Source of the DNA: an uncultured delta proteobacterium
Lineage (GTDB): Bacteria; Desulfobacterota; Desulfobacteria; Desulfobacterales; JAHEIW01
Assembly (NCBI GenBank): GCA_963706575.1
Contig: CAVPNL010000006.1
Location: 736,001-800,000 of the forward strand
Length of the DNA stretch: 64,000 nt
Direction: 5' to 3'
The notes beneath the pieces were generated by a model. That model made no database searches, had not been told where the DNA came from, and saw only the letters and a program-made list of their open reading frames with translations. The position numbers and the translations under genes are program-made. Shown here piece after piece: positions 1-59,430 of the stretch; the stretch's first letter is position 1; each line of letters starts with the position of its first letter.

Positions 1-960
1 CAGCGGATTGATTAAAGAATGTCGATAAGCGGAAAATCATAATCGAGGTTGAGCCGTGAAGGATGCGGGAAAAATATCAGGCTGATATAATAAATGACCA
101 CTCGGAACTGGGTCATAAGCCTTTCAGAAAGGGTAAATTCCTTGTTGGCAAAAGTCTTGAATTGACGATAATCTTTTCTAGGGATCCAGGCCCAAATATA
201 AAAGGGCGATCACACCGAAAACAAAAACAACCAAACATGACAGATATTTCAGATTTCGCTTCAACCAGTCGACGCTAAGATCCTGGAAAGAAATACCACT
301 CGTAAAGAAAAACAAAAAACGGCAAGGTGGCAGCGTTTTGTTTGCTCCCCAGTGCGAAATATCCATGCCAGTGCAGCGCCGCCGAACCAGCCCCATTTTT
401 TGCCCGGTTGCGCCGCAAGGCGTCCTTTCACATAGAGCCAAAAAGCAAGAATATAAAACAGGGCTGCCATACTGTTCATTCGCTGCACAATATAGGTAAC
501 CGATTGGGTTTGGATCGGATGAACCAACCAAAGCAAAGCCGCAAAAAAGGCAACCATGAAAGGTGTGATCAACTTCAGTTTTAAGTGAAGGAAGATTTAA
601 GGTGGTTTGGATAAAAATGAAGAGGAATATACCGGCTAAAATGTGTATAACGATATTAACAAGATGGTAGCCTTCGACGTTGTACTGGTGAAGTAATAAT
701 TTAAAGCAAACGTAACATTGCCAACTGGCTCGTGTCTTTGCAGATTGTTTGCCAAATGCGGCCTCAATCAGGTTTTCCGCGCTAAGCTCAGTTACTCGAA
801 TGCTCTGATTTTCCTCAATTCTGAGTATATCATCAAAGATAAATGGACTTTCGAAGGTTTTGGAATATAGCAAAAAGCCCGAAACCGAAAAAACAGAAAG
901 CACCGCCAATATCATTAAAATAGAACGATTTCTGCTTAACTCGTTTGTTTGCTGCATCAT
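1..960 (-). CDS. Multi-TM GT-C-like (TMTC/protein O-mannosyltransferase-like) membrane protein; frameshifted, runs off the left edge
   Basis: ORF pieces 178..960 and 261..572 give FIFDD..I..N, GYHLVNIVIH and LWLVHPIQTQSVTYIVQR motifs typical of the bacterial TMTC-like TPR protein family. Confidence 0.7.
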
Positions 961-1011
961 AGCTCTGCGTTTTGGATTGATCGCATCTCGGACTTCTTTT
1001 ATTCAAAAAGT

Positions 1012-1948
1012 TCAAGAATTCCCCCCACAAAAGCAATGATCAGCATCTGGGAGAAAAATAGAGATTCCAATTAGAACACCTTTTTCGGGGGGCAAATTAA
1101 AAAAAGTAAACAAATAGGCATAAGCGCCTTCTCTTAATCCAATTCCCGCAAAAGAAATTGGAATCGTTTGCAGTAACAGCACCAATGAGCCGATCCACAT
1201 GATATCCATAAAGCCCAAAGGAACCGATGCGGCCTTAATGAGAACCAACAGCCTGCAGATAAAAAATATTTGCCAGAGAAGACTCAGTCCGAGAATAGAA
1301 GTAAACGTGTTGCCGTTTATTTTTTTGAGATTATGGTTTTCAAAATAGGCATCAACATTTAATTTTGGTCGTATTCGTTGCAGCGTTGAATTGTGTCATT
1401 GATTTAATCAGATCACGTATCGGCGAAAAAATATAAAATAAAATAAATACCGACACAAAACATATCCCGATGGCAGCGATTGGCAAAAGGCGCATCCTTA
1501 GAATCTCGATCTCGGGATTTGATTTATAGAAAAATAGCGGAATCATCCCGCAGAAAAGAAGCACCAAAAGAAAGGTTAACCGTTCGAATACGATAGACGC
1601 TAAAAATTGAGCCTTGCCATTTTTATTGCGGGTGACTTTAATCCATCGGACAACTTCCCTTCCAATGGCTGACGGCAGGAAAAGTGCATAAAATCTGGCA
1701 ATGAAATTTATTTTTACTAATGAAGCCAACGAATGATTAATAGCGCTTCCTTTTATGAGGAAATAATATTTTCCGGCGACGATGATCCCCGAAGATACCG
1801 CCAGAAGGGTAGAGATCACGTAAAGGCTTACATCGATGCTGCCCATCGTAGCGGCCAGTCTAGAAACATCGACCTTAAAAAAAAGATATCCGATAAAAAG
1901 GCAGGATATAACAATTTTTAAGATTATTTTTAGATACCGTTTATCCAT
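1012..1948 (-). CDS. Lysylphosphatidylglycerol synthase TM-domain (YbhN/UPF0104) flippase-like membrane protein; frameshifted
   Basis: Pieces 1352..1948 (LFLPSAIGREVVR, SIVFERL) and 1012..1248 (IPISFAGIGLREG) carry the family motifs. Confidence 0.75.
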
Positions 1949-1999
1949 TCTTCTGTCTCGGCATAACCGAACTTTTTGAGCTGCGGAATTAGAATAGGG

Positions 2000-2886
2000 C
2001 TAATTTTCTTTTAAATCCTCTTTTGAGAATTCTGTTTTCCATTTGTTATAGTTATCCGCCGTTAATTTAGGGAGTGGTTCGAAAAACGCTTTGCTGGCAT
2101 CTAAGCCTAAAAAGCCTAATATCTCTGTAATTTTTTGACAGGGCGTTTGGATGAGATCTTCATAGCGAACGATGAGGCGGTAGTTTTTTTGAATTAATTT
2201 CCAATGCGTTTCGATGCGTTTTACGCAATGTAACCATTGGTAGGCATTGAATTGCAGTAGTGACGATTGATCATAAATTCGCTCCCAGTGTTTAAACCTG
2301 GGGCCCCAACCGATGTCACCTCTCCAACGCAACCGATTTAAGTGTTTCTTTTTGTTTGTGAAATGTCCGTGCCTTTCAAATGACAATGCCTTAATTTATC
2401 ATTTAAGAAAGGCTGACGACCCAAAAACTTATGGATTACCTGATATGCCGCCCCATAATTAAAGCGACCTTTAGAGAGCGGATTTTTTATGATATTTTGC
2501 CTGCGCAACCATTCTTTGTTTATCGAAAGTGTGACATCTCTCCCATCGCGCAATAGATGTATAAACTTCGCTTGAGGAAATATTTTTAAAATAAAAGGTA
2601 TCTTGAGACTATTTCTAGGAGATTTATCGATCAGAACCACACATTTTTTCTTCGTTTTATATTTGGAAAAATTGCGGTAGATCCATTTTTTGACCTGCGG
2701 TGATGCATCTGCTTCTGTTCTTTCATCGTCAGGTGCCGTCCGGAAAAATCGGTCCCATACGAAATAGGGCTCATACCACTGGCTGATGTGATGATGTTTG
2801 TCCAGCAATTCTCCCAGTATTGTCGTACCTGATCTTGGTGAACCGACGATAAAAACAAACGCATCTCCCATTGTCTTTTCAGCCAT
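2000..2886 (-). CDS. PAPS-dependent sulfotransferase; frameshifted near 2380
   Basis: FIVGSPRSGTT (5'-PSB loop), DKSPRN, FIHLLRDGRDVTLS (3'-PB) and VRYEDL in the second piece. Confidence 0.85.
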
Positions 2887-2908
2887 AATTTACCCTGAAG
2901 AAAAGATC

Positions 2909-3952
2909 TTATCGCCACCATGTCTTGATGATGATGCGGGCGAAATGAATGCCATAGATTAGATCTTTTCCCTTTTTGCTTTTCCCGTATTTGCGTCTCA
3001 AAATGGTTATGGGTACTTCGCCGATGCGCAGACCCTGTTTGACGGCTTCAATTATAAGTTCACTGGTATGATATTGATCTTCGTGCAGCCGGATGGAGTT
3101 GACGGCATCCATGCGAAAAGCTCTGAAACCGCTGGAAGGATCGGTTATCTTTTTGCCCAAAAGTGTGGTGACAATTCGGCCGAAAACATAAACTCCGGCA
3201 ATTCTTAAACGGCTGGAGGCTTCTCTATTGCCAAGAATACGTGATCCGATCACACAATCATATTGTCCTTCAATAATGGGCAATATGAGATATGGGATAT
3301 CTTCCGGCCGATGCTGACCATCGGCATCCATTGTTATGCAATAGCGAACGCCCGCTTTTTGTAAAATATCGTATCCCAGTCTCAGTGCAGCCCCGCCGCC
3401 CCTGTTGATCAGATTTTTAACTGCGCAAGCACCACTGCTTTCCGCTACAGAAAAGGTTTCATCATCACTGCCATCGTCGACCACTAGGACTCCAACATCG
3501 ATGCCTTCGATTTGTTTCGGGATCTTTGGCAGCAAAGCCGCTAAATTTTCTGCCTCATTATAAGCAGGGATGAGGATCATAATCGGCTTGATTTTCCGGG
3601 CAAGGTCAGCGCTTTTTTCGATTTCTCTTGTTCCCAATGAGCGGACCAACCGGTCGAACTGAAAATGAATATTATCGACCTTTAGTTTTGTAAACAAAAT
3701 GTAGAACAGTAAGAAAATATTTGAAACAATCAACAGGGCAATTATTCTACCCCGGTAAGCCGTTTGTAAAGATAGGGCATCTCGTAATGCATTTAGAATG
3801 TTGGGATTAATGGTTACGGCAATCAGGCTGAAATTCAACAGCATAAAAAAGATAAAATTGAGCCGGTTCCAGCGAGCGCCGCGGTAGACATAAAACGTGG
3901 CAACCAATCCTAAAAAGCCGACCAGGCAGCCCAATATTCTTAATGTTGACAT
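2909..3952 (-). CDS. GT2 glycosyltransferase (polyprenol-phosphate glycosyltransferase-like) with N-terminal membrane (DUF2304-like) domain
   Basis: IPAYNEA, VVDDGSDD, NRGGGAA, MDADGQH, GSR and DPSSGFRAF motifs; three N-terminal hydrophobic helices. Confidence 0.85.
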   Translation of the reverse strand: MSTLRILGCLVGFLGLVATFYVYRGARWNRLNFIFFMLLNFSLIAVTINPNILNALRDALSLQTAYRGRIIALLIVSNIFLLFYILFTKLKVDNIHFQFDRLVRSLGTREIEKSADLARKIKPIMILIPAYNEAENLAALLPKIPKQIEGIDVGVLVVDDGSDDETFSVAESSGACAVKNLINRGGGAALRLGYDILQKAGVRYCITMDADGQHRPEDIPYLILPIIEGQYDCVIGSRILGNREASSRLRIAGVYVFGRIVTTLLGKKITDPSSGFRAFRMDAVNSIRLHEDQYHTSELIIEAVKQGLRIGEVPITILRRKYGKSKKGKDLIYGIHFARIIIKTWWR

Positions 3953-4039
3953 TTTCTTATTCCTAGATGGTAAAAAGCAGCACTTCTATAGTTGATTTGA
4001 GCGTACTTTGAAGTAGATCTCTTTCGTTTTGATTTTTTT

Positions 4040-5179
<1,140 letters not shown>

Positions 5180-5189
5180 AAATAACCCC

Positions 5190-6223
5190 AATATTCCGCG
5201 ATTCGAGATTCAAGGAGATTGTTTTTTTAGAAATGAAGCCAGCTGGGATTTCGAAAGGGGATTTCATTGCCGAATGATAGGTCGGGTGACTTCTTTGAAC
5301 GGATATCCGGGTATTCAAAGCGACGTTGCGATAAATTTCCGTAAGGCCGGCAAAATCACGAAATATCGTTCCAATTCCCATGATCTTCTGGTCTCTTCGG
5401 TGTTCATCAATTCTTCGTACATTTTTTCCCCGGTTGTTCCCCGATGATCTTTATGTCGATATCTTCAGGCCGGTGGCCGTAGACAGGCGCCAGTTCCTCG
5501 ATCATGACTTCGGCCAGATCCTGAATGCGAATGGCCGGCATTTTGGTGACGAAGACTTCTCCGCCGCGCACAGGAGGGCGGAGTCGATGACCAGCTGGAC
5601 GGCGTCTTCAATGCTCATGATAAAGCGGGTCATGTCCGGATCCGTCACGGTGACGGGTCCGCCCCGACGAATCTGTTCGCGAAAAATGGGGATTACCGAG
5701 CCACGGGAGCCCAGCACATTGCCAAAACGCGTGGAGGTGAAAACGGTCCGTCGTTCGAAGGTTGCTGTTGGCGGCCGTCATCAGCCGCTCGCCCATCAGT
5801 TTTGAGGTGCCCATAACATTGGTCGGGTTAACCGCCTTGTCCGAGCTGGTGAAAATAACCCGTTCGACCTTGTTTTCAATGGCGGCATAGATGATGTTTT
5901 GGACACCGAGGATGTTGGTTTGTACCGCTTCAAAAGGGGACCGCTCGCAGAGGACGACGTGCTTGAAGGCGGCCGTGTGGAAGACCACATCGATGCCTTT
6001 CATTTTGTCCTTTAGCCGGTCTCTGTCACGCACATCGGCCAAAAAGAAATTTGCGGGTGGCCGTATTTGGCATATTTCTGTTCGATGGAAAAAAGCTCAC
6101 TTTCATTGTTGTCAAGACCGATAAGCTCTTTCGCCTGGTACTGTTCCAAAAGCTGACGGATCAATTCTCTTCCGACGGTGCCGCAGGCGCCGGTGACCAG
6201 GATGCGTTTTTGTTAACGTCCAA
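5190..6223 (-). CDS. UDP-GlcNAc 4,6-dehydratase-type polysaccharide biosynthesis protein (CapD/PseB family); frameshifted, ends approximate
   Basis: [12 protein letters not shown] near 6200, [33 protein letters not shown] and TDPDMTRF. Confidence 0.85.
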
Positions 6224-6376
6224 TTGGTTTTCTCTTTCTTTTCTTTGGGTTATCGGTCCGCAAAAAATAATGTTCCCTGGCTTTTAAGGTGCTGAAACTT
6301 ATCATTTAAGTGCATATCAAGCAAATGAAATTTATGAATACCGCAATTTTAGGGCAACGCATACGGTTAAATGCCG

Positions 6377-6532
6377 TGTCCGGGTCGGAAATTTTCGATG
6401 AAATTAAGCAAAAGATTGCTTCGTCGCTTACGCTCCTCGCAATGACAGTGCGAGACATTTGCGGGTCATTGCGAGCGAAGCGAAGCAATCTTAACGCTCG
6501 GGCATCTCACCGAGAATTGCCATACCCGGGCA
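6377..6532. repeat. MITE-like shell with ~25 bp imperfect terminal inverted repeats enclosing a REP-type hairpin pair
   Basis: tgtccgggtcggaaattttcgatga ... tcaccgagaattgccatacccgggca; inner gattgcttcg...gcaatgac and gtcattgcgagcgaagcgaagcaatc (~6414-6490). Confidence 0.7.
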
Positions 6533-6577
6533 AAGCATCTTGACTTGGTCTGCAAAAGTCTTTATCTATCACGCAAT

Positions 6578-8243
6578 ATGAAACAGAAAATACGTGATCT
6601 AATTCTCAGTGCGGCTAAAAGCGCCTATGAAAAAAGGAGATTTGCCGTCAGCTGACATTTCCGAGGTTGAGGTTGAAGAGCCCGGGCTGATGCCCACGGA
6701 GATTTTTCTAGCAATATTGCCATGGTGATGGCATCGGCTCAAAAAATGGCGCCGCGTAAAATTGCGGAAGCCATCATTGCTCACATTCAAGATCCGCAGG
6801 AATTGATTGAAAAGACTGAAATCGCCGGTCCGGATTCATTAATTTTTTTGTCAAACCAGTCGGCCTGGCACCCGGTTTTGCGTGAGATTCACGAAGCCGA
6901 TACCGCCTACGGTGCAACCGATATCGGTAAAGGTCAAAAATTTCAGGTCGAATATGTCAGCTCCAACCCCACCGGACCGCTGCATGTCGGTCACGGCCGC
7001 GGTGCGGCCGTGGGTGACGCGGTGGCCAATATTCTTTCCTTTTGCGGCTATGATGTCCAAAAGGAATATTACATCAACGATTCGGGCCGGCAGATCCGGA
7101 CCCTGGGGCAATCGGTTTTTCTGCGCTATCAGGAGCTGTGGGGCCAAAAAGTCAAATTCCCGGATGAATGCTATCAGGGGGATTATATTCGTGATCTGGC
7201 TGCCGACATCAAAACCCGCAAAGGCGCTGGCCTTTTAAGCGAGCCGGAACAAGACGCCATTATGGAATGCGCGCGCTTTGCCGCCGGGAACATACTGGAC
7301 GGCATTCGGGACGATTTAAAATTATTCGGGGTCGAATTTGACTGCTGGTTCAGTGAACAGAGCTTATATGATTCCGGCCGCGTGGTTGAGATTCTTGATA
7401 ATTTTCGCAAACAGCAGATTATTTACGAAAAAGACGGGGCCCTGTGGTTTAAAACCAGCGATTTCGGTGATGAAAAGGATCGGGTGGTGGTTAAAGCCAA
7501 CGGCGAAACGACCTATTTCTGCATCCGACATCGCCTACCACCAGGACAAGTATGACCGTGGGTTTGAATGGGTGGTCGACGTCTGGGGAGCGGATCATCA
7601 TGGTTACATTCCCCGGATGAAAGCCGCCGTTGAAGCCTCCGGGCATCGGCGGGATCAGTTTGATGTCATTTTGGTGCAGCTGGTGAATTTGCTCAGAGCC
7701 GGGCAACCGGTTGCCATGTCGACACGGGCCGGCAAATTCGAGACCCTGCGCGAGGTTATCAACGAAGTGGGCCGGGACGCCGCGCGCTTCATCTTTTTGA
7801 CCCGCCATTATGAAAGCGCCCTTGATTTTGATCTGGAAGTCGCCAAGCAAAAAACCAATGATAATCCGGTTTATTATGTTCAATATGTGCATGCCCGCAT
7901 CTCGAGCATCGTGCGCAAGGGAAACGAACGGGGGACCTGCGAGGTTTCCTGGGATGACAAGGCCGTGGCTCGCCTGGAGGCACCTGAGGAAATTGATTTG
8001 ATTAAAGCCCTGGCGCGCTATCCGGATGTCCTGGCAGGCAGCGCCAGAAGCATGGAGCCGCATCGTGTGACCTATTATTTGATGGACCTTGCATCGGCCT
8101 TTCACACTTACTACAATAAGCACCGGGTTTTAGTCGATGATTCGTTGTTGCGCTGCGGTCGGCTCAATCTTGTTTTAGCGGTTCAAAAAGTAATCCGAAA
8201 CGGCCTGACGCTGCTGGGCGTTTCTGCCCCGGACAGTATGTAA
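6578..8243 (+). CDS. argS: Arginyl-tRNA synthetase; split by indels near 6690, 6835 and 7520
   Basis: ATG at 6578; [20 protein letters not shown] (HIGH motif), [27 protein letters not shown] and C-terminal [10 protein letters not shown]. Confidence 0.95.
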
Positions 8244-8307
8244 AACCGGACTTTAAATTTCCATCTTTACCCGCAAGTCCGTCGGATGGCGTCAGCAATG
8301 ACTGTTT

Positions 8308-8369
8308 TCGCGGCAGGATGCCGCTCACACCGCTTGTTGATGGTTTGTGGAGTGGCTTCCCAGCCACGA
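8308..8369. repeat. REP-like inverted pair (GTGGGAGCGGC...GCCGCGA type)
   Basis: tcgcggcaggatgccgctcacac followed by tgtggagtggcttcccagccacga, an imperfect reverse complement. Confidence 0.55.
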
Positions 8370-8392
8370 GACCCAAAGCATAAAATTCAACA

Positions 8393-9172
8393 ATGAGAAA
8401 AAAGAATAAACGCAAAGAGCCGGAATTTAAAAAACCCTTTATTGTCCTGTCGCGCCGCAAAATTGCGGGGTGGATTTTTTTAATTTTTTTTCTGTGTGCC
8501 TGGATGTTCATACTGGGGATATTGGTCGGCAGAGGTACGGCCCCGGTCAAATTTGATATTGCTGCCCTTGAAAAAAAATTAGAAGCCTCGAAAGAGGGTG
8601 ACGGCGGCGATCAAAAAAAAGCGCCGGCACCGAAAAGGCCGGTTACCGTAAAGGATAAAACCAAGCTCGAGTTTTATGAAGCGCTTAAAGAAAACAAAGT
8701 AGATCCGGACGTTCCGGCGCTTCAAAAGCCGGAGGTTGTAAAAGATAAGATTGAAAAACCGGCCGAAAAAACCGTTCCCCAGGAGCCAATAAAGGAAACC
8801 GTTCCAAAAGCGGCATCTGAAAAATCGGCTTCTCAAAAAACAGGGACGCAAAAACCGGAACCTGCAGCAAGTTCTCAAATCAAAAAGCCGGCCAAGAAAA
8901 AGGGAAAAGTTCCTGCCGTTACTCCGACAAATGCTGCAGGCCCTGTATACACCATCCAGGCAGCTTCCGTTAAAGATCCAAAAGATGCGGATCGGCTGGT
9001 CCAGAAATTAAAAAAAAGTGGATATCCGGCCTATCGGGCGATCGGCAAGATACCCGGAAAAGGAATCTGGTATCGGGTCAGAATCGGAGAGTATCAGCGC
9101 AAATCTGAAGCGCTGAGCGTGATGAATAAATTGAAAAAAGAAGGTTTGAAACCGATCCTGGTAATGAAATGA
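8393..9172 (+). CDS. SPOR-domain cell-division protein (FtsN/DedD-like)
   Basis: N-terminal TM helix, Lys/Pro-rich linker, C-terminal YTIQAASV...WYRVRIGEY SPOR domain; common position downstream of argS. Confidence 0.85.
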   Translation: MRKKNKRKEPEFKKPFIVLSRRKIAGWIFLIFFLCAWMFILGILVGRGTAPVKFDIAALEKKLEASKEGDGGDQKKAPAPKRPVTVKDKTKLEFYEALKENKVDPDVPALQKPEVVKDKIEKPAEKTVPQEPIKETVPKAASEKSASQKTGTQKPEPAASSQIKKPAKKKGKVPAVTPTNAAGPVYTIQAASVKDPKDADRLVQKLKKSGYPAYRAIGKIPGKGIWYRVRIGEYQRKSEALSVMNKLKKEGLKPILVMK

Positions 9173-9223
9173 CCTTCGTTACCTTCACTATGTCATATAG
9201 GTCCGAAAGCAGTCTTTTTACCA

Positions 9224-9321
9224 GTGTGTTTAGTATTTGGTGTTTAGTGTTTAGTAATCTAACATGCAGATATAGGATCATATATTTCATGCCAAACACC
9301 AAACACGAAACACAAAACACT
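9224..9321. repeat. Inverted heptamer array element, copy 1 (GTGTTTA)n-spacer A-(CCAAACA)n
   Basis: gtgtgtttagtatttggtgtttagtgtttagt / aatctaacatgcagatataggatcatatatttcatg / ccaaacaccaaacacgaaacacaaaacact; followed by gactttttacga. Confidence 0.9.
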
Positions 9322-9393
9322 TGTTGAATTCGACTTTTTACGAACACTAAAGCAAGATATTAGAGGGCGAATGACAAAAGGCGGTTTAAGGAC

Positions 9394-9681
9394 ATGAAAA
9401 TAACCAAAGAAGAAGTGCTGTACGTTGCCCACCTCGCACGCCTGGATTTGGATGAGGAATCCATCGAGAAGTTCGCCGGCCAAATTGACGAAATCCTGGG
9501 ATACATTGAAAAATTGAACCGGGTCGATACCAAAGGCATAAAAGCGACTTCGCACGCCATTTCTCTGACCAATGCGTTTCGCGACGACGAGGAAAAGGAA
9601 CACATCGATCGTGAGCTGGCACTGGAAAATGCGCCTGAAAAAGAAGATGGTAGTTTTGTGGTTCCCAAGGTCGTCGGATGA
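9394..9681 (+). CDS. gatC: Asp/Glu-tRNA amidotransferase subunit C
   Basis: MKITKEEVLYVAHLARL...NAP...FVVPKVV; directly upstream of gatA. Confidence 0.95.
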   Translation: MKITKEEVLYVAHLARLDLDEESIEKFAGQIDEILGYIEKLNRVDTKGIKATSHAISLTNAFRDDEEKEHIDRELALENAPEKEDGSFVVPKVVG

Positions 9682-9823
9682 TGCATTTGAAAAAGGCCCC
9701 CTTTTGCCCAATTTCTGTGTCAAGCTCCGGTTTTAATCCTCGACATACAACCAAGTATGCCTGTGGTTAAAATCCTCGCTTTCCTTGAAATTGAACAAAA
9801 TTGAACCTTTTTCAAACGCATCA
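9679..9823. repeat. ~145 bp palindromic element with CATAC-n-GTATG core
   Basis: Terminal IR tgatgcatttgaaaaagg ... cctttttcaaacgcatca; core aatcctcgacatac-aaccaa-gtatgcctgtggtt. Confidence 0.75.
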
Positions 9824-9861
9824 TACAAAATATTGTTAAAAGAAAAAAACGAAAAGGTATT

Positions 9862-11322
9862 ATGGAATTATTTGAGTTAACAATAGAAAAGGCTCACCGG
9901 TTATTAAAAACCAAAGAAATATCTTCGGTGGAGTTAACCCGCGCGGTATTGGATCGCATTGACACAGTGGAAGGAAAAGTTGATGCGTTTATTACGGTCT
10001 CGGAAAAAACTGCAATGGAACAGGCGAAAGAAGCAGATCAAAAGATTGCCAGCGGTCATTGTGAGTCGTTGACCGGAATTCCGCTTGCCATCAAAGATGT
10101 CATCTGCACCCGGGGCGTGCCAACGACATGCGGCTCTAAAATTCTTGAAAATTTTGTGCCGCCCTATAATGCCACGGTAATCGGCAAACTCAACAAAGCG
10201 GGGGCGGTAATTGCCGGTAAAGCAAACATGGATGAATTTGCCATGGGCTCGTCCACCGAAAACTCGGGTTACAAAATTACCCGCAACCCCTGGGATCTGG
10301 CCTATGTGCCGGGCGGATCCAGCGGTGGCTCGGCAGCTGCGGTTGCCGCCGATATGTGCCTGGGCGCTTTAGGCTCGGATACGGGAGGGTCCATCCGGCA
10401 GCCGGCGTCATATTGCAGCACGGTGGGCATGAAACCGACCTACGGACGGGTATCCCGATACGGACTGGTGGCGTTTGCATCCTCTCTGGATCAAATCGGG
10501 CCTCTGGCAAAGAATGTCTCGGATTGCGCCATAATGCTCAAGGCGATCGCCGGTTATGATTCTGCAGATTCTACGTCCGTTTCCCGGGAGGTGCCTGATT
10601 ATACCGCTGCTTTACAAAAGGGATTAAACGGCGTCCGGGTGGGTATCCCCAGAGAGTACAACGCCACTGAGGGAATCGATTCCGAAGTGTCGGCGGCAGT
10701 CGATAGCGCTGTCAAGGTGATCGAGGATCTGGGTGCTGAAAAAATGGAGGTGTCCCTGCCGCATACCGAATATGCTGTGGCCGTATACTATGTGATTGCG
10801 CCCTCAGAGGCAAGCTCAAATCTGGCGCGCTACGATGGCGTTAAATACGGCATGCGGGACAAAAATCAAACCGACATGATTAAAATGTACCGCAGCACGC
10901 GCTCTCATGGTTTCGGTCCCGAAGTTCAGCGGCGCATCGTTATCGGGACCTACTGCCTTTCGGCCGGCTATTACGATGCTTATTACGGCAAAGCCTCCCA
11001 GGTGCGGACTTTGATCATGGAGGATTTTGCCAAAGCGTTTGAAAAATGCGATGTGCTGTTATGCCCGGTGGCCCCGACACCGGCATTTAAAATCGGTGAG
11101 AAGGTTGATGACCCGCTGACAATGTACCTGTCGGACATTTTCACCATTTCGGCAAACCTGGCCGGGATCCCCGGTATGTCGATCCCCTGTGGATTTTCAA
11201 AACAGGGCCTTCCCATCGGGCTGCAATTAATGGGCAAGCATTTTAACGAAGAGATGCTTTTTAAAGTGGCCTATAATTTCGAACAGGCTACGGATTTTCA
11301 CAAAAAAAAACCCGACCTGTAG
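9862..11322 (+). CDS. gatA: Asp/Glu-tRNA amidotransferase subunit A
   Basis: Amidase signature [24 protein letters not shown] and SSNLARYDG. Confidence 0.97.
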
Positions 11323-11417
11323 CAAAGCGCAAAGCGCATGAAACAAAGCGGCATAGCGTTTCTATTTGCCTATTTTTCTTTTTTTAACTCTTTGCGCTCT
11401 GCGCCATGCGCTATGCT
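11321..11417. repeat. Inverted heptamer array (GCAAAGC / GCTATGC family)
   Basis: agcaaagcgcaaagcgcat ... ctttgcgctctgcgccatgcgctatgct. Confidence 0.7.
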
Positions 11418-11460
11418 TTTATGTTCGGCCAATTGACCACTGACGAAGGAGACTGCCGTT

Positions 11461-11643
11461 ATGACCACCGTACAACCGGAAGGTGAAGATTTAAGAAGAG
11501 CCGTCAAATGGATTTCTGAAGAACGCAAATTTAATCCGGAGGCCCAAACATCCAAGCTTATCGAGGAAGCCTGTCTGAAATTCGATCTGTCGCCGATGGA
11601 TGCGGAGTATCTTTTAAAGTTGTTGAAGAAAGATCGTGTTTAG
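11461..11643 (+). CDS. Small hypothetical protein (60 aa)
   Basis: GAAGGAG RBS upstream; helical protein MTTVQPEGEDLRRAVKWISE...FDLSPMDAEYL; stop codon lies within the first heptamer unit. Confidence 0.75.
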   Translation: MTTVQPEGEDLRRAVKWISEERKFNPEAQTSKLIEEACLKFDLSPMDAEYLLKLLKKDRV

Positions 11644-12088
11644 TGTTTTGTGTTTAGTGTTTAGGGAGGATAAAAAATGGCTTTTGTGCGATTTGAAGAT
11701 CTCAGAGTTTTCAAACTGGCTGAAAAATTATGTGATGATATTTGGGGTATCGCAATATCCTGGAAGTATTTTGAGAAAAACACAGTTGGTATGCAACTCG
11801 TAAAGGCTGCGGATAGCATCGGTGCTAATATTGCAGAAGGCGCCGGCAGAGGAACACCCAAAGATAACAAGCGATTTGTCAGAATTTCTAGAGGGTCTTT
11901 GAATGAAACAAAATATTGGCTTCGAAGGTGCATAAGGCGGGGTTTGATTAACGATAAGCAAAGCGATTTTTTGCGGGAAATGATCGACGAATTAGGTCCA
12001 AGCCTTAACGCATATTTGAAATCCATTGGAAGAGATAAGTAGATCCAAACACCAAACACCAAACACGAAACACCAAACACCAAACACT
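11636..12088. mobile_element. Gene-carrying copy of the inverted heptamer element (copy 2): arms 11636-11664 and 12045-12088 bracket a four-helix-bundle gene
   Basis: gtgtttagtgttttgtgtttagtgtttag + RBS + ORF + ccaaacaccaaacaccaaacacgaaacaccaaacaccaaacact; mobility is inferred, not shown. Confidence 0.6.
11677..12042 (+). CDS. Four helix bundle protein (23S rRNA IVS protein / Avd-like family)
   Basis: FEDLRVFKLA, QLVKAADSIGANIAEGAGR, RFVRISRGSLNETKYWL; GGAGG RBS; more AT-rich than its neighbours. Confidence 0.92.
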   Translation: MAFVRFEDLRVFKLAEKLCDDIWGIAISWKYFEKNTVGMQLVKAADSIGANIAEGAGRGTPKDNKRFVRISRGSLNETKYWLRRCIRRGLINDKQSDFLREMIDELGPSLNAYLKSIGRDK

Positions 12089-12092
12089 ATCC

Positions 12093-13847
12093 ATGCCCAA
12101 AATACAAATACTCCCCGAAACGTTATCCAACAAAATTGCGGCCGGTGAGGTGGTTGAACGGCCGGCTTCAGTGGTCAAAGAATTGCTGGAAAATGCGCTG
12201 GATGCCGAAAGCACCCGCATTATCGTAGAAGTCGAAAAAGGCGGCCAGTCCCTGATTCAGGTCTCCGACAATGGCGTCGGCATGAATCACGCGGATGCGC
12301 TTTTAGCCATCGAGCGTTACGCCACCAGCAAAATATCCAGCGATGATGATTTGTTTGCCATCCGCACCCTGGGCTTCAGGGGTGAAGCCCTGCCCAGTAT
12401 TGCCTCGGTATCGCGCTTTCTACTGATTACCCGCGATAAGTCATCAGATGCCGGCACGGAGATCATTGTTGACGGCGGCAAAACAAAAAGTGTCTCTGAG
12501 GTCGGGGCCCCGGTGGGAACCATGATTTCGGTCAAGCAGCTATTTTTTAATACACCGGCCCGCAAAAAATTTTTGAAAACGGTCGGCACCGAGATGAGCC
12601 ACATTGCCGATACCGTTGCCCGCATGGCCCTGGGCCGTCCCGGGGTGCAGTTTCGCCTGAGCCACAACAATAAAACCGTTAAAAGCTGGCCGGCGGTTTC
12701 ACAGCATCTCGACCGGGTGGCGGATGTGCTTGGCAAAGATTCCCGGCCGGATCTGCATGCCATCGAATTTAACCGCAACGGCCTTTCGATATCCGGCTGG
12801 ATCTGTTCTCCGCGGGTGACGCGCCGCACCTCCCGGGGGCTCTATATCTTTGTCAACGGCAGGTTCGTACGCGACCGGACGATCCAGCACGGTATCTTTA
12901 AGGGATTTGCGCAGCGCCTGGTCAAGGGGCAATTCCCCATCGCCGTTGTTTTTATCAAAATTCCCTTTGATCAGGTGGATGTCAACGTGCATCCGACCAA
13001 AAATGAAGTTCGCTTTGTAAACCCGCACGCGGTGCATGAAGCCGTAAAAAGCGCCATCGCCCAGAGGCTGTATGAAGTCGATCGCCTACAATGGGGCCGA
13101 TCAAATTATCCGGCGGCCAATACGACACCCAAATTCGGACAGGTTTCAGAGGCGGTCAAAGGCGATTTCGGATTTCGGATTTCGGATTTCGGAATTAAAA
13201 ACAGAGGACCGAGAACAGCAGCCAGCAGCCAGAGGAACCAGGAGCCGATCTTTGACACCAAAGGCTTTAGCGCTTTAAGGGTGGTCGGCCAGCTGCACAA
13301 CACCTATATTGTGTGTGAATCCGATGCCGGTCTGGTGCTCATCGACCACCACGCCGCCCATGAGCGCATTCTCTATGAACAGCTCCGGCGGCGTGCCGCC
13401 GATCAGCCTTCTGCCGCCCAGAAGCTTGTGGTGCCCGAAACCCTTGAGTTAAATTTCAGCGAAGCCGAGATCCTGGGACAGATGATGTCGGATTTAAAGA
13501 CCCTGGGATTGGAGATTGAACCGTTTGGCAAAAATACCTTTGTCGTCAAGGCGGTACCGCTATTGCTTGCCGGGCGGGACGTCAGACCCCTGATTTATGA
13601 AATCGTTGAGAAAACCGCGGCGGCGGGCGGTTCAGCGGGTTTGAAGGAGGTTCTGGATGAGTGCCGCAGGGTGATGGCCTGCCATGGGGCCATGCGGGCC
13701 AATCAGACGCTTGACGGCCAACAGATCCGGAAGCTGCTTGAGCAGTTGGATGACTGTGAAAACCCGTCCCATTGCCCCCACGGACGGCCCACCTGGGTCC
13801 GCTGGGACCTGGACACCCTGGAAAAATCGTTTAAGCGTGTTGTTTAA
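12093..13847 (+). CDS. mutL: DNA mismatch repair endonuclease MutL
   Basis: IAAGEVVERPASVVKELLENALDA, GFRGEAL, VDVNVHPTKNEVRF, DHHAAHER, ACH and CPHGRP. Confidence 0.97.
   Translation: MPKIQILPETLSNKIAAGEVVERPASVVKELLENALDAESTRIIVEVEKGGQSLIQVSDNGVGMNHADALLAIERYATSKISSDDDLFAIRTLGFRGEALPSIASVSRFLLITRDKSSDAGTEIIVDGGKTKSVSEVGAPVGTMISVKQLFFNTPARKKFLKTVGTEMSHIADTVARMALGRPGVQFRLSHNNKTVKSWPAVSQHLDRVADVLGKDSRPDLHAIEFNRNGLSISGWICSPRVTRRTSRGLYIFVNGRFVRDRTIQHGIFKGFAQRLVKGQFPIAVVFIKIPFDQVDVNVHPTKNEVRFVNPHAVHEAVKSAIAQRLYEVDRLQWGRSNYPAANTTPKFGQVSEAVKGDFGFRISDFGIKNRGPRTAASSQRNQEPIFDTKGFSALRVVGQLHNTYIVCESDAGLVLIDHHAAHERILYEQLRRRAADQPSAAQKLVVPETLELNFSEAEILGQMMSDLKTLGLEIEPFGKNTFVVKAVPLLLAGRDVRPLIYEIVEKTAAAGGSAGLKEVLDECRRVMACHGAMRANQTLDGQQIRKLLEQLDDCENPSHCPHGRPTWVRWDLDTLEKSFKRVV
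13164..13191 (+). repeat. Perfect (GATTTCG)4 heptamer tandem repeat inside the mutL linker
   Basis: ggc-gatttcg-gatttcg-gatttcg-gatttcg-gaatt, translated DFGFRISDFG. Confidence 0.9.
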
Positions 13848-14126
13848 ATCAAGGAGCTTGCATGGTTGTCGATGCTTTAAAATAAATTGTGGCAATAGGG
13901 TGCCGAACGTTAAAAGCGGTAAAAAAATTATCACGAAAGCACGAAATTTTGTTTTTTTCGTGTTTTAATTCTTTCGTGCTTAAAGATCACTTTTTATCGC
14001 CATATTTTATTCCAGCGGGACTTCACTTCGAAGGGATAATGCGCCGCTATCAGAGATTTTTATTTTGATGTTCATGATAAGTGGATTTTCAATAATTTAA
14101 AAGGCTTAAATAAATCGCAAAAAAGC

Positions 14127-14155
14127 TTGACAACGCCCCTGTATCATTCTATGAT
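14127..14155 (+). promoter_or_regulatory. Sigma-70-type promoter of the porin gene
   Basis: TTGACA (14127-14132), 17 bp spacer, TATGAT (14150-14155); AT-rich upstream. Confidence 0.8.
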
Positions 14156-14379
14156 TTATGGAATTTCCATGTTCGGCATCAGTATATCGTCAGGCTGCAA
14201 GGGGACCTATGGAAAACGGTTCATATAATCCCTCTGATGCCGGCCAAATATCGCGCGGGAAGGAGGTGAAACCGCACCGATTCAGCATTCAGCGCAGCAC
14301 AGGAAATTATTAGGCAATGTGATTTAATTATTAGGCAAAAGCGTTAAACTTTAATTATCCGTTAAGGAGGAAAATTAAG

Positions 14380-15519
14380 ATGAAGAAACTTATTTTGGCT
14401 ATTGCTGCATTGGCCCTGATTGCTTCACCGGCCATGGCATTGGAGTGGGACTTTTACGGCAGCGCCCGTGTTCAGACATCGTATCATACGTGGGACTCAA
14501 AAGATGCGACCGACAACACATTTCAAGATGGTGCCTGGAGAAGCCAGACTGGTACATCATGAACCAGATTTCAGTCAAGACGATGATGACTACGGGCTGT
14601 ACTGGGATATTGCTGGGAACCTCCCGTGTTGGCGCGAGAGTCAAGGGTGATCCCGTCCAGGGACGCTTCGAGTTCAACAACGGCGTCGGCACCCGGCTGC
14701 TCTGGGGCCAGTGGAAGATTAACTCGGGCCTCAGGCTGCGCGTCGGTCAGAGACTGGCGTCCGCTGAACTATTTTTACAGTGGTCAACAGGTTAACGATG
14801 CCGGCATGGCCGGTCCGGAAGGTGCGGGCGGTGTCATTTCCCACCGCGATGCGCAGCTCAAGCTGATCATCGGCGAGGGCCAAAACCTGCATATCGCCTT
14901 CGTTGAGCCTCAACTCAATGCAGATATTGGCAATGCAGACAGTCGATTACTACATGCCCATCATCGAGGCCAATTATCACTTTGCAGCCGATGCGTTCTT
15001 CTTCGATGTCGGCGGTGCTTTTGCGAGCTATGACATGGAAGGTGATGGAACTACCGCTTCACCCGACGACAAGCTTAACGCCTGGATAGTCACCGCCGGC
15101 GGCGGATTCAATATGGGTCCGGCATATATCAAAGCCAACGTCGGTTACGGTCTTAATATTAACGATCTGGGTATGGTTACCAACAGGGCTGAATGATAGG
15201 AACACCGGCGAAGGCCAATGCTGATGGCGAATGGGATGATAACGATACCCTACTTCTGTTAGGTGTTGTCGGCATGCGTTTTACCGATCAGCTGGCTGTC
15301 GAGGGCGGTGTCGGCTATGAAAACACCGAGGATGATGTCAAGGGCCCGTGGTAATAAAGACGACGAAACCATGGCTGTTTATGCGCACCTGAACTAGACC
15401 GCTGCACCGGGTGTCTCCATCATTCCGGAAATCGGCTATATCGATCTGATGGACAATGCCAACGGTACTGAGGAAGGTGATCGACCTATTTCAGTGTCAA
15501 ATGGCAGATCGACTTCTAA
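14380..15519 (+). CDS. Outer-membrane beta-barrel porin; split by several indels
   Basis: AAGGAGG RBS; signal peptide MKKLILAIAALALIASPAMA then EWDFYGSARV; alternating beta-strand pieces; ends KWQIDF with C-terminal Phe, TAA at 15517-15519. Confidence 0.8.
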
Positions 15520-15562
15520 AAAGCGTCTTTAGTTTCAGCGCTGTTTAGAAGGCAATGAGCAC

Positions 15563-15596
15563 AAAGCCCGGGGTATTTTTACCCCGGGCTTTTTTT
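15563..15596 (+). terminator. Rho-independent terminator after the porin
   Basis: aaagcccggggta-ttt-taccccgggc-ttttttt. Confidence 0.9.
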
Positions 15597-15708
15597 GTGT
15601 ATTGTGTACGCTTGGCAGGGTGCCAGCATCCGTTTTTCTGTTAAGCCTTTTTGGTTTCCTCACGCCCCCGCTGACCCGGAACTCTGCAACATGAAAAAGG
15701 AAGATTTA

Positions 15709-15874
15709 CTAGTTTTGTGTCCTACAAATAGGTTACAAAATGATTGTCACTCCCGCGCAGGCGGGAGTCCAGTTCAAAGAAGTCTGGATTCCCGCCTGCG
15801 CGGGAATGACGGGCGGATAGCAAGCCTCAGTATTTAACAATATTTTAGACAATATTTCTGGGACACAATCCTAG
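15709..15874. mobile_element. CTAG-bounded MITE-like shell containing an empty REP pair
   Basis: ctagttttgtgtcc ... ggacacaatcctag; inner gtcactcccgcgcaggcgggagtcca / tggattcccgcctgcgcgggaatgac (15746-15810). Confidence 0.7.
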
Positions 15875-15904
15875 AATTTTTATCCGGCGCACACTTGAGC
15901 GGTG

Positions 15905-17569
15905 TTAATCCGGCAGGCCGTAGGCGATGATACGGCTTTTCGCGTCGGTCAGGACGGTGGTTCCCTCACTCATGACCAGGGCCGCGATCAGTACCGGCTG
16001 CCCGTTGTTGTTAAAATCACCGACGGCGAAATCTCGGATGAATCCTGAAATTTGATGCGTCTTCCAGATCGGTCTCAGACCGAACCCATCCCAGGCCCAT
16101 GATTGGATGTGCGTTTTTGTGAATTTGCGGAACTTCTCCAGTTTTGCTGAAAGCAATATCATGATTTTTAACGGCAATGACCTCGCTGTCGTTTCCGGTC
16201 TTGTTTTTGCGGACAACGATCCGCATGGGATAATATTTCGGGTTGGTGATGCCTCCCAGATTGTCTCGCGGGAGCTGATAGTAAAGCGTGCTGCCCCCGA
16301 AACGCTCGGCTACCTTCCAGAGCACTTTGCCGCCGGATCGATAATCTGAAGATAGTCGGATTCGTTGTAAGCAACGGCTGTTTCCTCGCCGTCATTGGTG
16401 ACGTCACCGAGCGCAAGCCCCAGCACATTGACGGCGGCACGGACCTTTATCGTGTCCGAGGGAACGTATTCATGGCCCTGCCAGATCATTTCGTAAATGT
16501 CATCGGAAAACGCATTGTCGTATTTGTGTTTCTGCCCAAGCAAAATTTTGCCTCTCGACGACGGATCGGCTACGCGAAAATACCAGCGGGCATTCTCGAC
16601 GATTTTATCGAAACCCTTGCCGCTATATTCCAGCACAAAGGAAGTGAGCGTGTTTCGCTGAAGGTTGAGGCTGGTTACAAAAATCTCAGCAGGCCCGTTT
16701 CCATTGATGTCGGCGACATCCACCCCGATATGATAGTTACCCTTGTCTTCGTCGGCTTCATGGACCTTAAAAAATTTTCCGTCTTCGAAGCGGTAAACCA
16801 TCACCGAATGGGGCGTCACCACCACGGTTTCTGTTTTGCCGTCGCCGTCCACATCTCCCATGGCAAGGCCGTTGATGAGGTACTTAAAACTGGCGCTGCG
16901 CCAGAATCCTCGAGACTCTTTTTCCTCGCCCATCATGATAATGGGACCCCCTTCGCCTTCTGCGCCGCGCCCTTTCAAAAGCTTTTCAGGGTGAGCATGG
17001 GTATCATCTTTTGGAGTCGATTCAGATACTTTAGCCGGCGGTGCTGTTTTTGAGGCCGCTTCTGCCTGCCGGCCGAAAACATTGGCATTGATCTCTACCG
17101 CGATCTGGTTGATTTTGGTAATGACCCCGCCCAGGTCCTGGCTTTGTTCAAAAAAGCTCGTGGTGGGCGTATTTCCGGAAACATCCACCATTTTGCTATC
17201 AATGCTGATGCTGTCGCCAAAAACGGTTAAACTGCCAAACAGGGTGTAATCCGCATTTAATTGCGAACCGATTTTGCGGGCCAGAAGCTCATCAACGGCA
17301 GCGGGGCCACCCAGCGCCTCGACCGCGCTTTCGGCCTCCTGCCGGCCGATCACGACCACCTCGCCCTCTTTTGACAGGCGTGATGTGAGCATGTCAAAGA
17401 TGCCGTTTTGCAAAAATGTCATATCCTTTTCGGCATTGATCTTAAACGGCAGCAGGGCGATGCGTTTGGGTTCGGCGGCATCCGAAAAGCTGATGGTTAA
17501 CGTTGTTAATGCGATAAAACCGATTAACATAAAATAAATGATTTTAAATTTTTGTGACTCGCGTAGCAT
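15905..17569 (-). CDS. Exported FG-GAP/VCBS-repeat protein with N-terminal TolB-like domain; two frameshifts
   Basis: Signal peptide, RIALLPFKINA; repeats GDVDGDGKTE, ADINGNGPAEI, GDVTNDGEE and GDFNNNG across ORF pieces. Confidence 0.8.
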
Positions 17570-17634
17570 ATTGCCTCTTAAGTTTTTGGGCTATTCGGTT
17601 GTCGTTTTAAATAGTTGCCGGCTGGCGTAATCGG

Positions 17635-17808
17635 GTCATTCCCGCGAAAGACTGTGTCATAATTCGAAAAGTATTCAATTGTTGTCATGCCGGGCTTGAT
17701 CCGGCATCCAGGACTGACCCTGAATCAATGGATTCCGGGTCAAGTCCGGAATGACAAAATAGAATATGATGTTTCATCAATTGGACACAGTCGGAAAGCG
17801 GGAATCCA
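17635..17808. repeat. REP hairpin interrupted in its loop by a GACTGTGTC...GACACAGTC element that carries another REP pair
   Basis: gtcattcccgcgaaa | gactgtgtcataatt...gtcatgccgggcttgatccggcatcca...tggattccgggtcaagtccggaatgac...aattggacacagtc | ggaaagcgggaatcca. Confidence 0.8.
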
Positions 17809-17810
17809 GC

Positions 17811-18104
17811 TTATTGGCAAATTTCTTCAAATAAATCATTCCATTGAGGATTCATTTTTTCTATTAACTGTAATTTCCAAGCTCTTCGCCATTTTTTTAT
17901 TCGTTTTTCTCTGGCAATTGCACTTTCAACGTTGTCGTGGACTTCATAATATAAGAGCGTTTTTACATTCTATTTTTGAGTGAAGCCTTCGATTATATTG
18001 TTCTTATGCTGCCATACGCTTTGGATCAGATTGGAAGTTATCCCCGTGTATAATGTGCCATTGCGCTTGCTCGCCAATATATACACGTAAAATTGTTTAT
18101 TCAC
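17811..18104 (-). pseudogene. GIY-YIG nuclease (UPF0213/YhbQ-like) pseudogene, absent from the ORF track
   Basis: Manual translation: VNKQFYVYILASKRNGTLYTGITSNLIQSVWQHKNNIIEGFTQK*NVKTLLYYEVHDNVESAIAREKRIKKWRRAWKLQLIEKMNPQWNDLFEEICQ; in-frame TAG at 17970-17972. Confidence 0.9.
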
Positions 18105-20789: not shown

Positions 20790-20900
20790 GTGTGTTTCGT
20801 ATTTAGTGTTTGGTGTTTAGTATTCCAACATGCCGATATAGCATCACCTATTTCATACCATAAACCAAACACCAAAAACCAAACACGAAACACCAATCAC
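20790..20900. repeat. Inverted heptamer array element, copy 3 (spacer A)
   Basis: gtgtgtttcgtatttagtgtttggtgtttagt / attccaacatgccgatatagcatcacctatttcata / ccataaaccaaacaccaaaaaccaaacacgaaacacc; preceded by aagtcagaaagcagtctttt like copies 1 and 4. Confidence 0.88.
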
Positions 20901-25686: not shown

Positions 25687-25693
25687 TAAAATC

Positions 25694-25846
25694 TCGTAAA
25701 AAGTCAGAAAAGCGTCCTTTTTACGAGTGTGTTTTGTATTTGGTGTTTAGTGTTTAGTATTCTAACATGCAGATATAGTATCATATATTTCATACCAAAC
25801 ACCAAACACGAAACACCAAACACTAGATGAATTCGACTTTTTGCGA
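25694..25846. repeat. Inverted heptamer array element, copy 4 (spacer A), inside a TCGTAAAAAGTC...GACTTTTTGCGA shell
   Basis: Arms 25727-25759 and 25795-25824; near-identical to copy 1; 12 bp outer IR at 25694-25705 and 25835-25846. Confidence 0.9.
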
Positions 25847-25943
25847 AATTATCAATCTTTTCCTTGACCATAGTTACAAATTCGGAATTAATCCCGATCT
25901 GGTATAATTTTTTAGAGTTTGTTCCGCAAATGAGGTGAAAGAA

Positions 25944-41669: not shown

Positions 41670-41921
41670 GGTCGTGTCCCGCAAAAATGTTATAAAAATC
41701 GTTTGGTAAATTTTAATTCAGTTAAATTTTTTAAACAACACAATGTCTTTGGTTTCAGGTGTCAGAAAAAGATGACAGAATGCGAATTCCGATAATTTTT
41801 AACGTCATCAGGCTCCTTACCCTGACACCTGAAACCCGACACCTGAAACCTGTATTGTTGAAAGAGAAGATTGATAAGCTCAATCCGTATTTTATAAATT
41901 ACTTGTTGGACACAACACTAG
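41666..41921. mobile_element. CTAG-bounded MITE-like shell (same family as 15709-15874, opposite orientation) containing an inverted heptamer array
   Basis: ctagggtcgtgtcc ... ggacacaacactag; inner ggtttcaggtgtcag ... ctgacacctgaaacccgacacctgaaacc (41751-41850). Confidence 0.7.
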
Positions 41922-50675: not shown

Positions 50676-50768
50676 GTTTCATTGGTTTAATTGGTTCGAT
50701 TGGTTTGATTGGTTGAAGGCTATTTCGAAACCAATTGAACCAATTAAACAAATCCAACCAATCAAACA
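50676..50768. repeat. Inverted 9-mer tandem array (ATTGGTTTA / TAAACCAAT type)
   Basis: cattggtttaattggttcgattggtttgattggtt ... aaccaattgaaccaattaaacaaatccaaccaatcaaac. Confidence 0.85.
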
Positions 50769-53963: not shown

Positions 53964-54094
53964 AGGTTCAGGTTTCAGGTTTCAGGTGTCAGGTGTCAGC
54001 AAACAGATGACAGAGAACAGAAAACAGAAGCCAGATAGGATGTGACGACCTCCCGGTTTTATCACCTGACTTCTGATCTCTGACACCTGAAACC
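53964..54094. repeat. Compound inverted heptamer array (GGTTTCA/GGTGTCA/CAGAnnn)
   Basis: ggtttcaggtttcaggtgtcaggtgtcag...cagatgacagagaacagaaaacagaagccaga ... ctgacttctgatctctgacacctgaaacc; same unit as 41751-41850. Confidence 0.85.
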
Positions 54095-59012: not shown

Positions 59013-59069
59013 AGTGCCTAAAGTGATCTAAAGTGATCTAAAATGCCTAAAGTTAAAAAAGGAAATCAA

Positions 59070-59297: not shown

Positions 59298-59300
59298 GGA

Positions 59301-59397: not shown

Positions 59398-59430
59398 AGG
59401 CTTATAAAGCCTATAAAGGAGTTTCAAAAC

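Follow-up and report, generated by a model that had tools for sequence, protein, structure and literature searches.

RESULTS

An FHB gene between inverted heptamer arms

The window, i.e., the complete stretch of 64,000 nucleotides that was analyzed, belongs to contig C6 of the genome of an uncultured deltaproteobacterium (G000; other G numbers denote related genomes, and L numbers denote the loci compared). Downstream of gatC and gatA, and with all features of the locus on the forward strand, it contains a conserved open reading frame for a protein of 60 aa, orf60 (11461 to 11643), whose product has no match in Pfam or NCBIfam, and mutL (12093 to 13847), which was recognized by its profile match. 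The two host genes form the left and the right border of a slot that is filled by a cassette of 450 bp, wedged behind the stop codon of orf60 and consisting of two arms and a gene. The left arm comprises four GTRTTTN units (11636 to 11664; GTGTTTA x4.1 in Tandem Repeats Finder), the first of which supplies the orf60 stop codon TAG (11641 to 11643). It is followed by a Shine-Dalgarno-like GGAGG (11665 to 11669), by a gene of the TIGR02436/PF05635 family for a four-helix-bundle (FHB) protein of 121 aa (11677 to 12042), and by a right arm of six units of the inverse repeat (12045 to 12087; CCAAACA x6.1 in Tandem Repeats Finder) that ends 5 nt ahead of the mutL start codon. The repeat and ORF coordinates bear out a first-pass annotation of this DNA, which had placed the gene and its ribosome-binding site exactly between two inverted heptamer arms. 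The cassette lies between orf60 and mutL and thus outside any 16S or 23S rRNA gene, and Rfam gave no match in the window.

Regarding the host genes, orf60 is conserved between gatA and mutL across deltaproteobacteria, and the last ten residues of its product vary with the occupant of the junction. Heptamer arrays are also present in the mutL reading frame (13164 to 13232), where GATTTCG x4.3 is followed by CAGCAGC between the two matched domains of MutL; the mutL gene of locus L004 has a related array at the same place.

The FHB protein

The cassette protein scored 90.8 bits on TIGR02436 (cutoff, 24) and 97.3 bits on PF05635 (cutoff, 33.8), and its structure model (pLDDT 92.4) consists of four helices. 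Its fold matches that of XCC0516 (2GSC; TM 0.88, rmsd 1.2, Z 19.7), BT_0352 (2RLD) matches as well, and the match to the DGR protein Avd (4DWL) reached a TM of 0.73 and a Z of 13.7 to 14.2 at a sequence identity of 13 to 16%. Residues N51, E54, R58, R72, S74, and E77 in helices 2 and 3 are invariant. The fold matches agree with the initial description of the protein as an Avd-like fold with no known transposase activity. Profile and fold searches found no transposase in the cassette, the protein has no match to Y1_Tnp or REP_Tyr_transpos (the RAYT that occupies the same junction elsewhere scored 138 bits), and no nuclease-type fold stood out among the 50 matches listed in a wide structure search. 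We know of no catalytic motif in the FHB family. The PDB entries 2GSC and 2RLD, both relatives at the sequence level, have five chains each, and Avd is a charged pentamer that binds an RNA site of about 27 nt, according to the available part of PMC6182149. Because of the five-chain entries and of PMC4990558, the cassette protein, with 23 basic and 16 acidic residues, is predicted to form a basic ring pentamer like XCC0516 and Avd.

The FHB gene is AT-rich (GC3 of 0.38 versus 0.57 to 0.64). Its dN/dS values of 0.11 and 0.15, determined against G006 and G004, respectively, are similar to those of mutL and place the gene under purifying selection, and its dS of 0.57 to 0.69 is near the 0.69 to 0.92 of mutL; the mutL comparison with C20 was out of frame and was left out. 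At least 4,187 homologues of the protein were found. Within the order, 47 of 61 genomes gave 1 to 22 FHB matches each, and no family member was found in the other 14. In one FHB paralogue of G000 (C6:495644-496045), a downstream array of 6-base units is translated as an acidic tail.

Arms and gene as one unit across genomes

The survey of flanking repeats covered 109 loci, 30 from the order and 79 from many phyla, with 105 FHB ORFs, of which 100 had full flanks. An inverted-repeat score of at least 14 was found around 68 of these 100 genes and around 12 of 253 neighboring genes; at the same score, 55 of 500 non-cognate (mismatched) pairings passed, as did 11 of 100 when the direct orientation was scored, and 32 FHB genes stayed below the cutoff. 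In G000, the flank test was passed by five of eight FHB copies, two of which represent the window locus on two contigs, compared to 47 of 4,571 ORFs. Both comparisons bear out the expectation, formulated at the outset, that inverted arrays are more frequent around FHB genes than around others, and the excess is large. The FHB genes of L063, L074, and L084 have arrays in direct orientation, possibly as a result of local inversions or misassembly.

Each FHB paralogue of G000 has a different repeat unit. Among 123 cassettes with a 7-mer unit, the heptamers differed by at most one base in all 90 protein pairs with an identity of at least 80%, and such a close agreement was seen in 0 to 2% of the protein pairs below 50% identity. 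In a quick tree, for which the careful search was incomplete and which came with long-branch warnings and very long branches for some G000 rows, a clade of 75 rows spanning several phyla has GTnnnTn units in most labeled rows, and 4 of 4 labeled rows of the deltaproteobacterial subclade that includes the window gene have GTGTTTN. Judged from these sequence comparisons, the repeat unit tracks the clade of the protein, even beyond phylum boundaries. Since unit and gene are physically linked, this covariation shows a cassette and not recognition.

The modal arm length is four units, a value that depends in part on the detection threshold. The left arm begins -16 to +10 nt from an upstream stop codon in 63 of 88 cassettes, and the immediate neighbors of the 100 FHB genes (195 proteins) fall into 127 clusters. 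No target-site duplication of at least 6 bp was detected in 101 cassettes; flanking duplications of at least 4 bp, scored with fuzzy ends, occurred in 25% of the cassettes versus 16% after shuffling. Inverted short-repeat arms around FHB genes outside rRNA were not described in the literature that was searched, which did not include most subscription journals and bioRxiv supplements.

A parallel cassette family is represented by GxxExxY (TIGR04256) genes in inverted arrays of 8- to 9-base units (L444:1869-2339, L451, L437, and G000 C6:266156-266542); at the same junction, other genomes have remnants that arose by internal deletion.

Heptamer arrays throughout the genome

Contig C6 contains 74 heptamer arrays, whereas a locally shuffled copy contains none. 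The whole G000 genome has 339 7-mer, 110 8-mer, 263 9-mer, and 42 10-mer arrays, compared to 0 to 2 per class in a shuffled megabase, i.e., the arrays are far beyond chance. The GTRTTTN family accounts for 33 inverted pairs, two of them with the gene, and for 11 unpaired arms; the strict doublet pattern of this family gave 14 matches and none when read backwards. Short doublets sit between co-oriented genes in 77 of 90 cases. For doublet families without a gene in G000, the cognate genes are present in relatives (L389 and L397). Strict GTRTTTN doublets are present in G034 and G058, where the search found no cognate gene, and they are absent from G070 despite the cognate gene there. The comparison of strict doublets with the cognate gene resulted in 2/3 versus 3/58 (Fisher P = 0.016), two of the positives being congeneric. 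Further arrays or inverted pairs of 7-, 9-, and 10-base units are located in the window at 11322 to 11416, 50676 to 50767, 53967 to 54029, 41819 to 41852, 59010 to 59053, and 61471 to 61500; the inverted pair at 11322 fills the gatA-orf60 slot, where relatives have other elements instead.

Gene-less arm pairs and their origin

As had been noticed on first inspection, the same two arms recur at five further sites of the window and enclose short spacers of two types, and the repeat coordinates confirm this. Type A pairs lie at 9226 to 9320, in a decayed MITE copy at the SPOR-gene/gatC junction, at 20792 to 20900, with one MITE end retained, and at 25729 to 25823, within a 167-bp MITE that has both terminal inverted repeats (25687 to 25853). 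Type B pairs are located at 59300 to 59398, inherited in most of the genus, and at 63807 to 63893, starting at the sucD stop codon. The spacers of the gene-less pairs measure about 23 to 42 bp, and the five window pairs fold with z values of -4.4 to -6.6.

The first-pass annotation regarded these pairs as empty derivatives of the full cassette, an idea of which one part stood. A deletion-derived empty copy is present at C6:463547 of G000, where the two arms are left together with the ribosome site and the final codons of a gene that is whole in G019 (L212), and the remnants in G040, G025, and G012 (see below) belong to the same pattern. FHB cassettes hence do decay by internal deletion to gene-less arm pairs. 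For the pairs of the window itself, such an origin was not supported: their spacers resembled the cassette interior no more than shuffled sequences did, and at the three sites compared, the FHB gene was found at none of 30 (59301), 30 (63807), and 20 (9224) orthologous loci. Gene remnants were also sought in 31 spacers of gene-less pairs, and 5 of them exceeded the 95th percentile of 40 shuffles, each by only one point; for the window copies, this origin was rejected. At 59301, 13 of 15 resolved genus-level junctions keep the arms around a drifting spacer, and other units are present in three other families; the arms at 63807 are retained in ten loci, and others have different units or REPs. 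The type B pairs of the window are, on the basis of these comparisons, old, inherited hairpins.

Type A pairs, in turn, ride in an element of 160 to 167 bp that has its own terminal inverted repeat, no coding capacity, and a target duplication, i.e., the features of a MITE. At least one MITE end accompanies 10 of the 33 GTRTTTN pairs of G000, and both ends accompany 6 (160 to 167 bp). A flanking duplication with 5/6 or 6/6 agreement was seen in five of the six two-ended copies; the copy at 25687 to 25853 has both ends and a decayed duplication, and the copy at 9224 passed neither end test, with a right end that is recognizable by eye. The terminal repeat of this MITE also delimits 64 short elements in metagenomes, a number to which some elements contributed with both of their ends; a perfect 6-bp target duplication is present in 35 of the 64, and GTRTTTN arms are present in none. 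An autonomous partner was found neither in G000 nor in the 80 of 123 metagenome loci analyzed. The family as a whole, with elements of 100 to 290 bp, a terminal inverted repeat of about 19 bp, and a 6-bp AT-rich target duplication, is common in metagenomes (L264 to L343), and in G000, it also occurs at C1:391363, C6:562026, C9:143181, C12:176932, C18:37708, C21:7071, and C25:3199. Because the type A pairs reside in this element and its metagenome copies are armless, the MITE has captured one doublet and copied it. Overall, the gene-less pairs are of mixed origin: some were left behind by deletions, some are hairpins that have been kept for long, and some were amplified by an unrelated MITE. 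Many empties were spread by the MITE, and counting them therefore overstates the activity of the cassette itself.

The capture and spread of the type A pair would be in line with a purely passive role, in which the arms are generic hairpins that are moved in trans by RAYT-type or DDE transposases, or by slippage and recombination, and the FHB gene is a frequent passenger. RAYT genes are present in G000, doublets occur without the cognate gene, and nuclease-like GxxExxY genes share the design, three of their four G000 copies passing the flank test. However, the cargo is nonrandom, since only 47 of 4,571 ORFs are bracketed and 8 of the 14 small ones belong to or overlap with the FHB family (five) or are GxxExxY genes (three). 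The dependence of the unit on the protein clade across phyla and the absence of such arms from the MITE elsewhere (0/64) also stand against a passive role, which we regard as rather unlikely.

The orf60-mutL junction as a slot

From 22 sequences of the orf60-mutL junction that were examined, 19 could be resolved. The whole cassette is present in four of them (G000 C6, G000 C20, G004, and G006), and arms with gene fragments are present in three: G040 retains the first 33 and about the last 8 codons of the FHB gene, G025 retains the last codons, and G012 retains the first 11 codons followed by REPs. Two junctions have right-arm traces only. Five are occupied by a RAYT with REPs, i.e., palindromes of roughly 20 bp (one RAYT is truncated, and the family was confirmed for G015), two by REPs only, and three by neither cassette nor RAYT/REP. 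Synteny of the gene in relatives that lack the arms had been named as evidence that would speak against a mobile element; the gene is not fixed in this way, with 4 of 19 resolved junctions holding it whole and 5 of 19 holding remnants. A clean pre-insertion allele was not found at this junction in close relatives. Cassettes of the GTGTTTN clade also occupy orf60-mutL in distant deltaproteobacteria (L085 to L087 and L089) and are located at other sites in L081 to L083 and L091; in L067, the orf60-mutL junction is filled by a different FHB clade with a different unit. Since the dS of the gene is near that of mutL and the same junction is occupied in distant deltaproteobacteria, the cassette is regarded as old and mostly inherited.

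Neighboring junctions are variable as well. In relatives, the gatA-orf60 junction is occupied by GxxExxY-like genes, by an FHB gene, or by doublets of various units, and the SPOR-gene/gatC junction contains GxxExxY cassettes, their deletion remnants, other repeats, or the type A element. The gatA-orf60 slot of L015 (G040) contains a small ORF whose product presumably resembles a HicB-type antitoxin.

The G000 bin, with a contamination of 6.4%, includes two further copies of the region on contigs C19 and C20. Compared with positions 1 to 18000 of the window, the three versions form a mosaic with 75 to 100% identity, and their occupants differ at three successive junctions. C19 is 98 to 100% identical in most intervals over about 4 kb upstream, yet it has a RAYT at orf60-mutL; the two sequences part about 30 nt inside orf60 and become alike again about 30 nt inside mutL, and C19 carries a GxxExxY gene at the site corresponding to 9224. 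C20 has the identical FHB gene, a right arm that is one unit shorter, and another doublet at gatA-orf60. We infer that the differences between C6, C19, and C20 reflect junction alleles swapped by homologous recombination; chimeric assembly is a possible alternative.

Family-level comparison extended to 89 FHB loci, 55 of which were mapped to 25 junctions of G000. Four of these junctions hold the gene in G000, and the other 21 hold a same-unit array (4), an other-unit array (9), or none (8) at a loose threshold with a background of 920/4,228. At a strict threshold, arrays were present at 8 of the 21 junctions versus a background of 15% (P = 0.009, with kin that are not independent). Junctions turn over among the FHB cassette, other FHB clades, GxxExxY cassettes, and RAYT/REP elements.

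This turnover bears on the possibility that the protein is a domesticated regulator, i.e., a ring that would bind the repeats in RNA, autoregulate its own expression via the arms, and tune translation or decay at those operon junctions that carry gene-less pairs. Purifying selection on the FHB gene and the arms kept around a drifting spacer in 13 of 15 junctions at 59301 would suit such a function, and TAACTGA arrays upstream of start codons have been proposed as regulator sites in the accessible part of PMC4679880. Nevertheless, close relatives have different units, REPs, or nothing at the same junctions, most of the genus has lost the gene at orf60-mutL or has a broken copy there, the search gave no family member for 14 of 61 genomes of the order, and the strand bias considered in the following section is absent. 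A regulatory role thus appears quite improbable.

RNA folding and strand bias

In the predicted fold of the cassette RNA, the arms pair with each other (z = -2.78, a value that none of 100 shuffles reached), and the predicted stem is interrupted about every 7 nt. The first-pass annotation had compared the cassette to an mRNA-borne intervening sequence (IVS). According to this reading, the arms would form an RNA stem that is cut by RNase III, thereby freeing the gene from the gatCA-mutL transcript as in 23S IVSs. The paired arms in the folds of the cassette and of the five gene-less pairs and the location of 77 of 90 short doublets between co-oriented genes are compatible with it, and the Coxiella 23S IVS, which carries a member of the same family, has tandem heptamers and a 28-bp stem that was cut by RNase III in vitro, as far as reported in the available part of PMC4990558. 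Selection on an mRNA stem should favor G-U pairs on the coding strand. Wobble pairs showed no such bias, neither in 123 cassettes (131 versus 150; P = 0.28) nor in 77 doublets (84 versus 84), in a test limited by the register ambiguity of tandem arrays; the mRNA/RNase III reading is therefore weakened. Moreover, the stem is broken about every 7 nt, an insert between genes would have no need of excision, and excision would leave the spread of the cassette and its clade-specific units unexplained. Excision from mRNA is consequently considered unlikely.

Eleven RNA runs contained 4 to 12% of the words, and four of them were compared (all contigs, mostly from other organisms). A candidate gene-skipping joint in these contigs had 35 other letters between the arms and was rejected as a splice product; it represents a gene-less doublet.

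DISCUSSION

The current study describes a member of the TIGR02436/PF05635 family in a cassette that resembles an ORF-bearing IVS in its build and RAYT/REPIN in its behavior. S23p genes of 23S rRNA IVSs, e.g., in Coxiella burnetii and Leptospira, are likewise PF05635 genes that are looped out by complementary arms, with tandem heptamers in an arm, a copy number that varies between strains, and a sporadic distribution, as described in the accessible part of PMC4990558. The terminal complementary stem that encloses an S23p ORF is common to both. The cassette differs in its position between protein-coding genes behind a stop codon, in its many sites and units, and in its gene-less relatives throughout the genome. 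RAYT/REP/REPIN systems, for their part, have a small single-copy gene per repeat family that is flanked by its own inverted repeats, many intergenic doublets that lack a gene and vary in their spacers, several pairs of gene and repeat in a genome, and a mostly vertical inheritance, according to the part of PMC3337134 at hand. Their elements even alternate with the cassette at the same orf60-mutL junction. In contrast to the HUH/Y1 transposase of RAYTs, the cassette protein is an all-helical four-helix bundle, and the cassette ends consist of tandem 7- to 10-mers.

With the Avd protein of DGRs (4DWL and 8UB7), the cassette protein shares the fold and the basic character, and the Avd pentamer binds a specific stretch of RNA (PMC6182149, available part). 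Unlike in DGRs, no reverse transcriptase adjoins the cassette, as judged from the window proteins scanned, and none was linked in a crude motif scan of loci L051 to L263. The single RVT_1 match of G000 (C4:301693-302349; L457), in a frame of 437 aa, is unlinked to any FHB gene. The unit varies only at positions 3 and 7, and the A-run of its inverse is left untouched, which is unlike adenine mutagenesis. MITEs and insertion sequences have inverted ends and shorter gene-less derivatives as well, and the type A pairs do reside in a true MITE, but the gene-bearing cassette lacks both a transposase and a target-site duplication. Taken together, the cassette is not an rRNA IVS (location), a RAYT (no HUH), an insertion sequence or MITE, or a DGR (no linked reverse transcriptase).

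Heptamer arrays are over-represented in bacteria and were called unexplained in PMC4692102, as far as its accessible text goes. Intergenic arrays that often form close inverted pairs were reported for GGGAATC in Xanthomonas (PMC4692102) and TAACTGA in Beggiatoaceae (PMC4679880), and in the parts of both articles that could be accessed, no link of the heptamers to an FHB gene was found. Supplement file 2 of PMC4692102 (row 27) lists a 4-unit array of the GGGAATC family at the start codon of XCC0516, which is annotated only as "conserved"; the supplement lists no inverted partner, and the accessible main text does not mention the gene. The array at XCC0516, a member of the FHB family with a solved structure, provides independent support for the association of gene and arms.

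The reading that we favor, and to which we assign roughly even chances, is that the cassette is a transposase-free selfish element that works like a RAYT gene with its REPIN repeats. A basic ring pentamer would bind the repeats of its own cassette with one unit per subunit, and an arm of four to five units would therefore represent one binding site, which fits the modal arm length of four units. Ring proteins that read short RNA repeats are exemplified by TRAP and Hfq. The arms may act in DNA or on either single strand and not only in mRNA. The bound protein might mark or pair the ends, and host enzymes would perform the chemistry of rare insertions behind stop codons. Among close populations, the cassette would ordinarily spread when homologous recombination in the flanking genes exchanges junction alleles as a whole. 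Against a selfish element stand the age of the cassette at its site, the failure to find a clean pre-insertion allele in close relatives, and the strict doublets of G034 and G058, two genomes in which the search gave no cognate gene.

A broader generalization, for which we claim only tentative confidence, would treat FHB genes as an undescribed class of transposase-free mobile elements, in which an Avd-like ring reads its own tandem repeat one unit per subunit and drives arm-bounded insertion behind stop codons. The 23S IVSs would then be stray insertions and the GxxExxY cassettes a nuclease-bearing counterpart, gene-less doublets would explain the excess of 7- to 10-base repeats, and operon junctions would be contested with RAYT/REP elements.

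These observations tie together the function of the very large S23p/FHB family, the spread of ORF-bearing rRNA IVSs, and the over-representation of heptamers in bacteria. The orf60-mutL junction exhibits whole, half-deleted, and replaced states side by side, including the alternation with RAYT/REP elements at the same spot. Since each protein clade has a defined repeat, a simple binding test of cognate versus non-cognate units is possible. If binding proves true, the family would represent a natural set of repeat-reading ring proteins and offer a lead on the origin of the DGR protein Avd. The cassette is likely insertable and transposase-free, and it may explain the puzzling 7-base repeats of bacteria.
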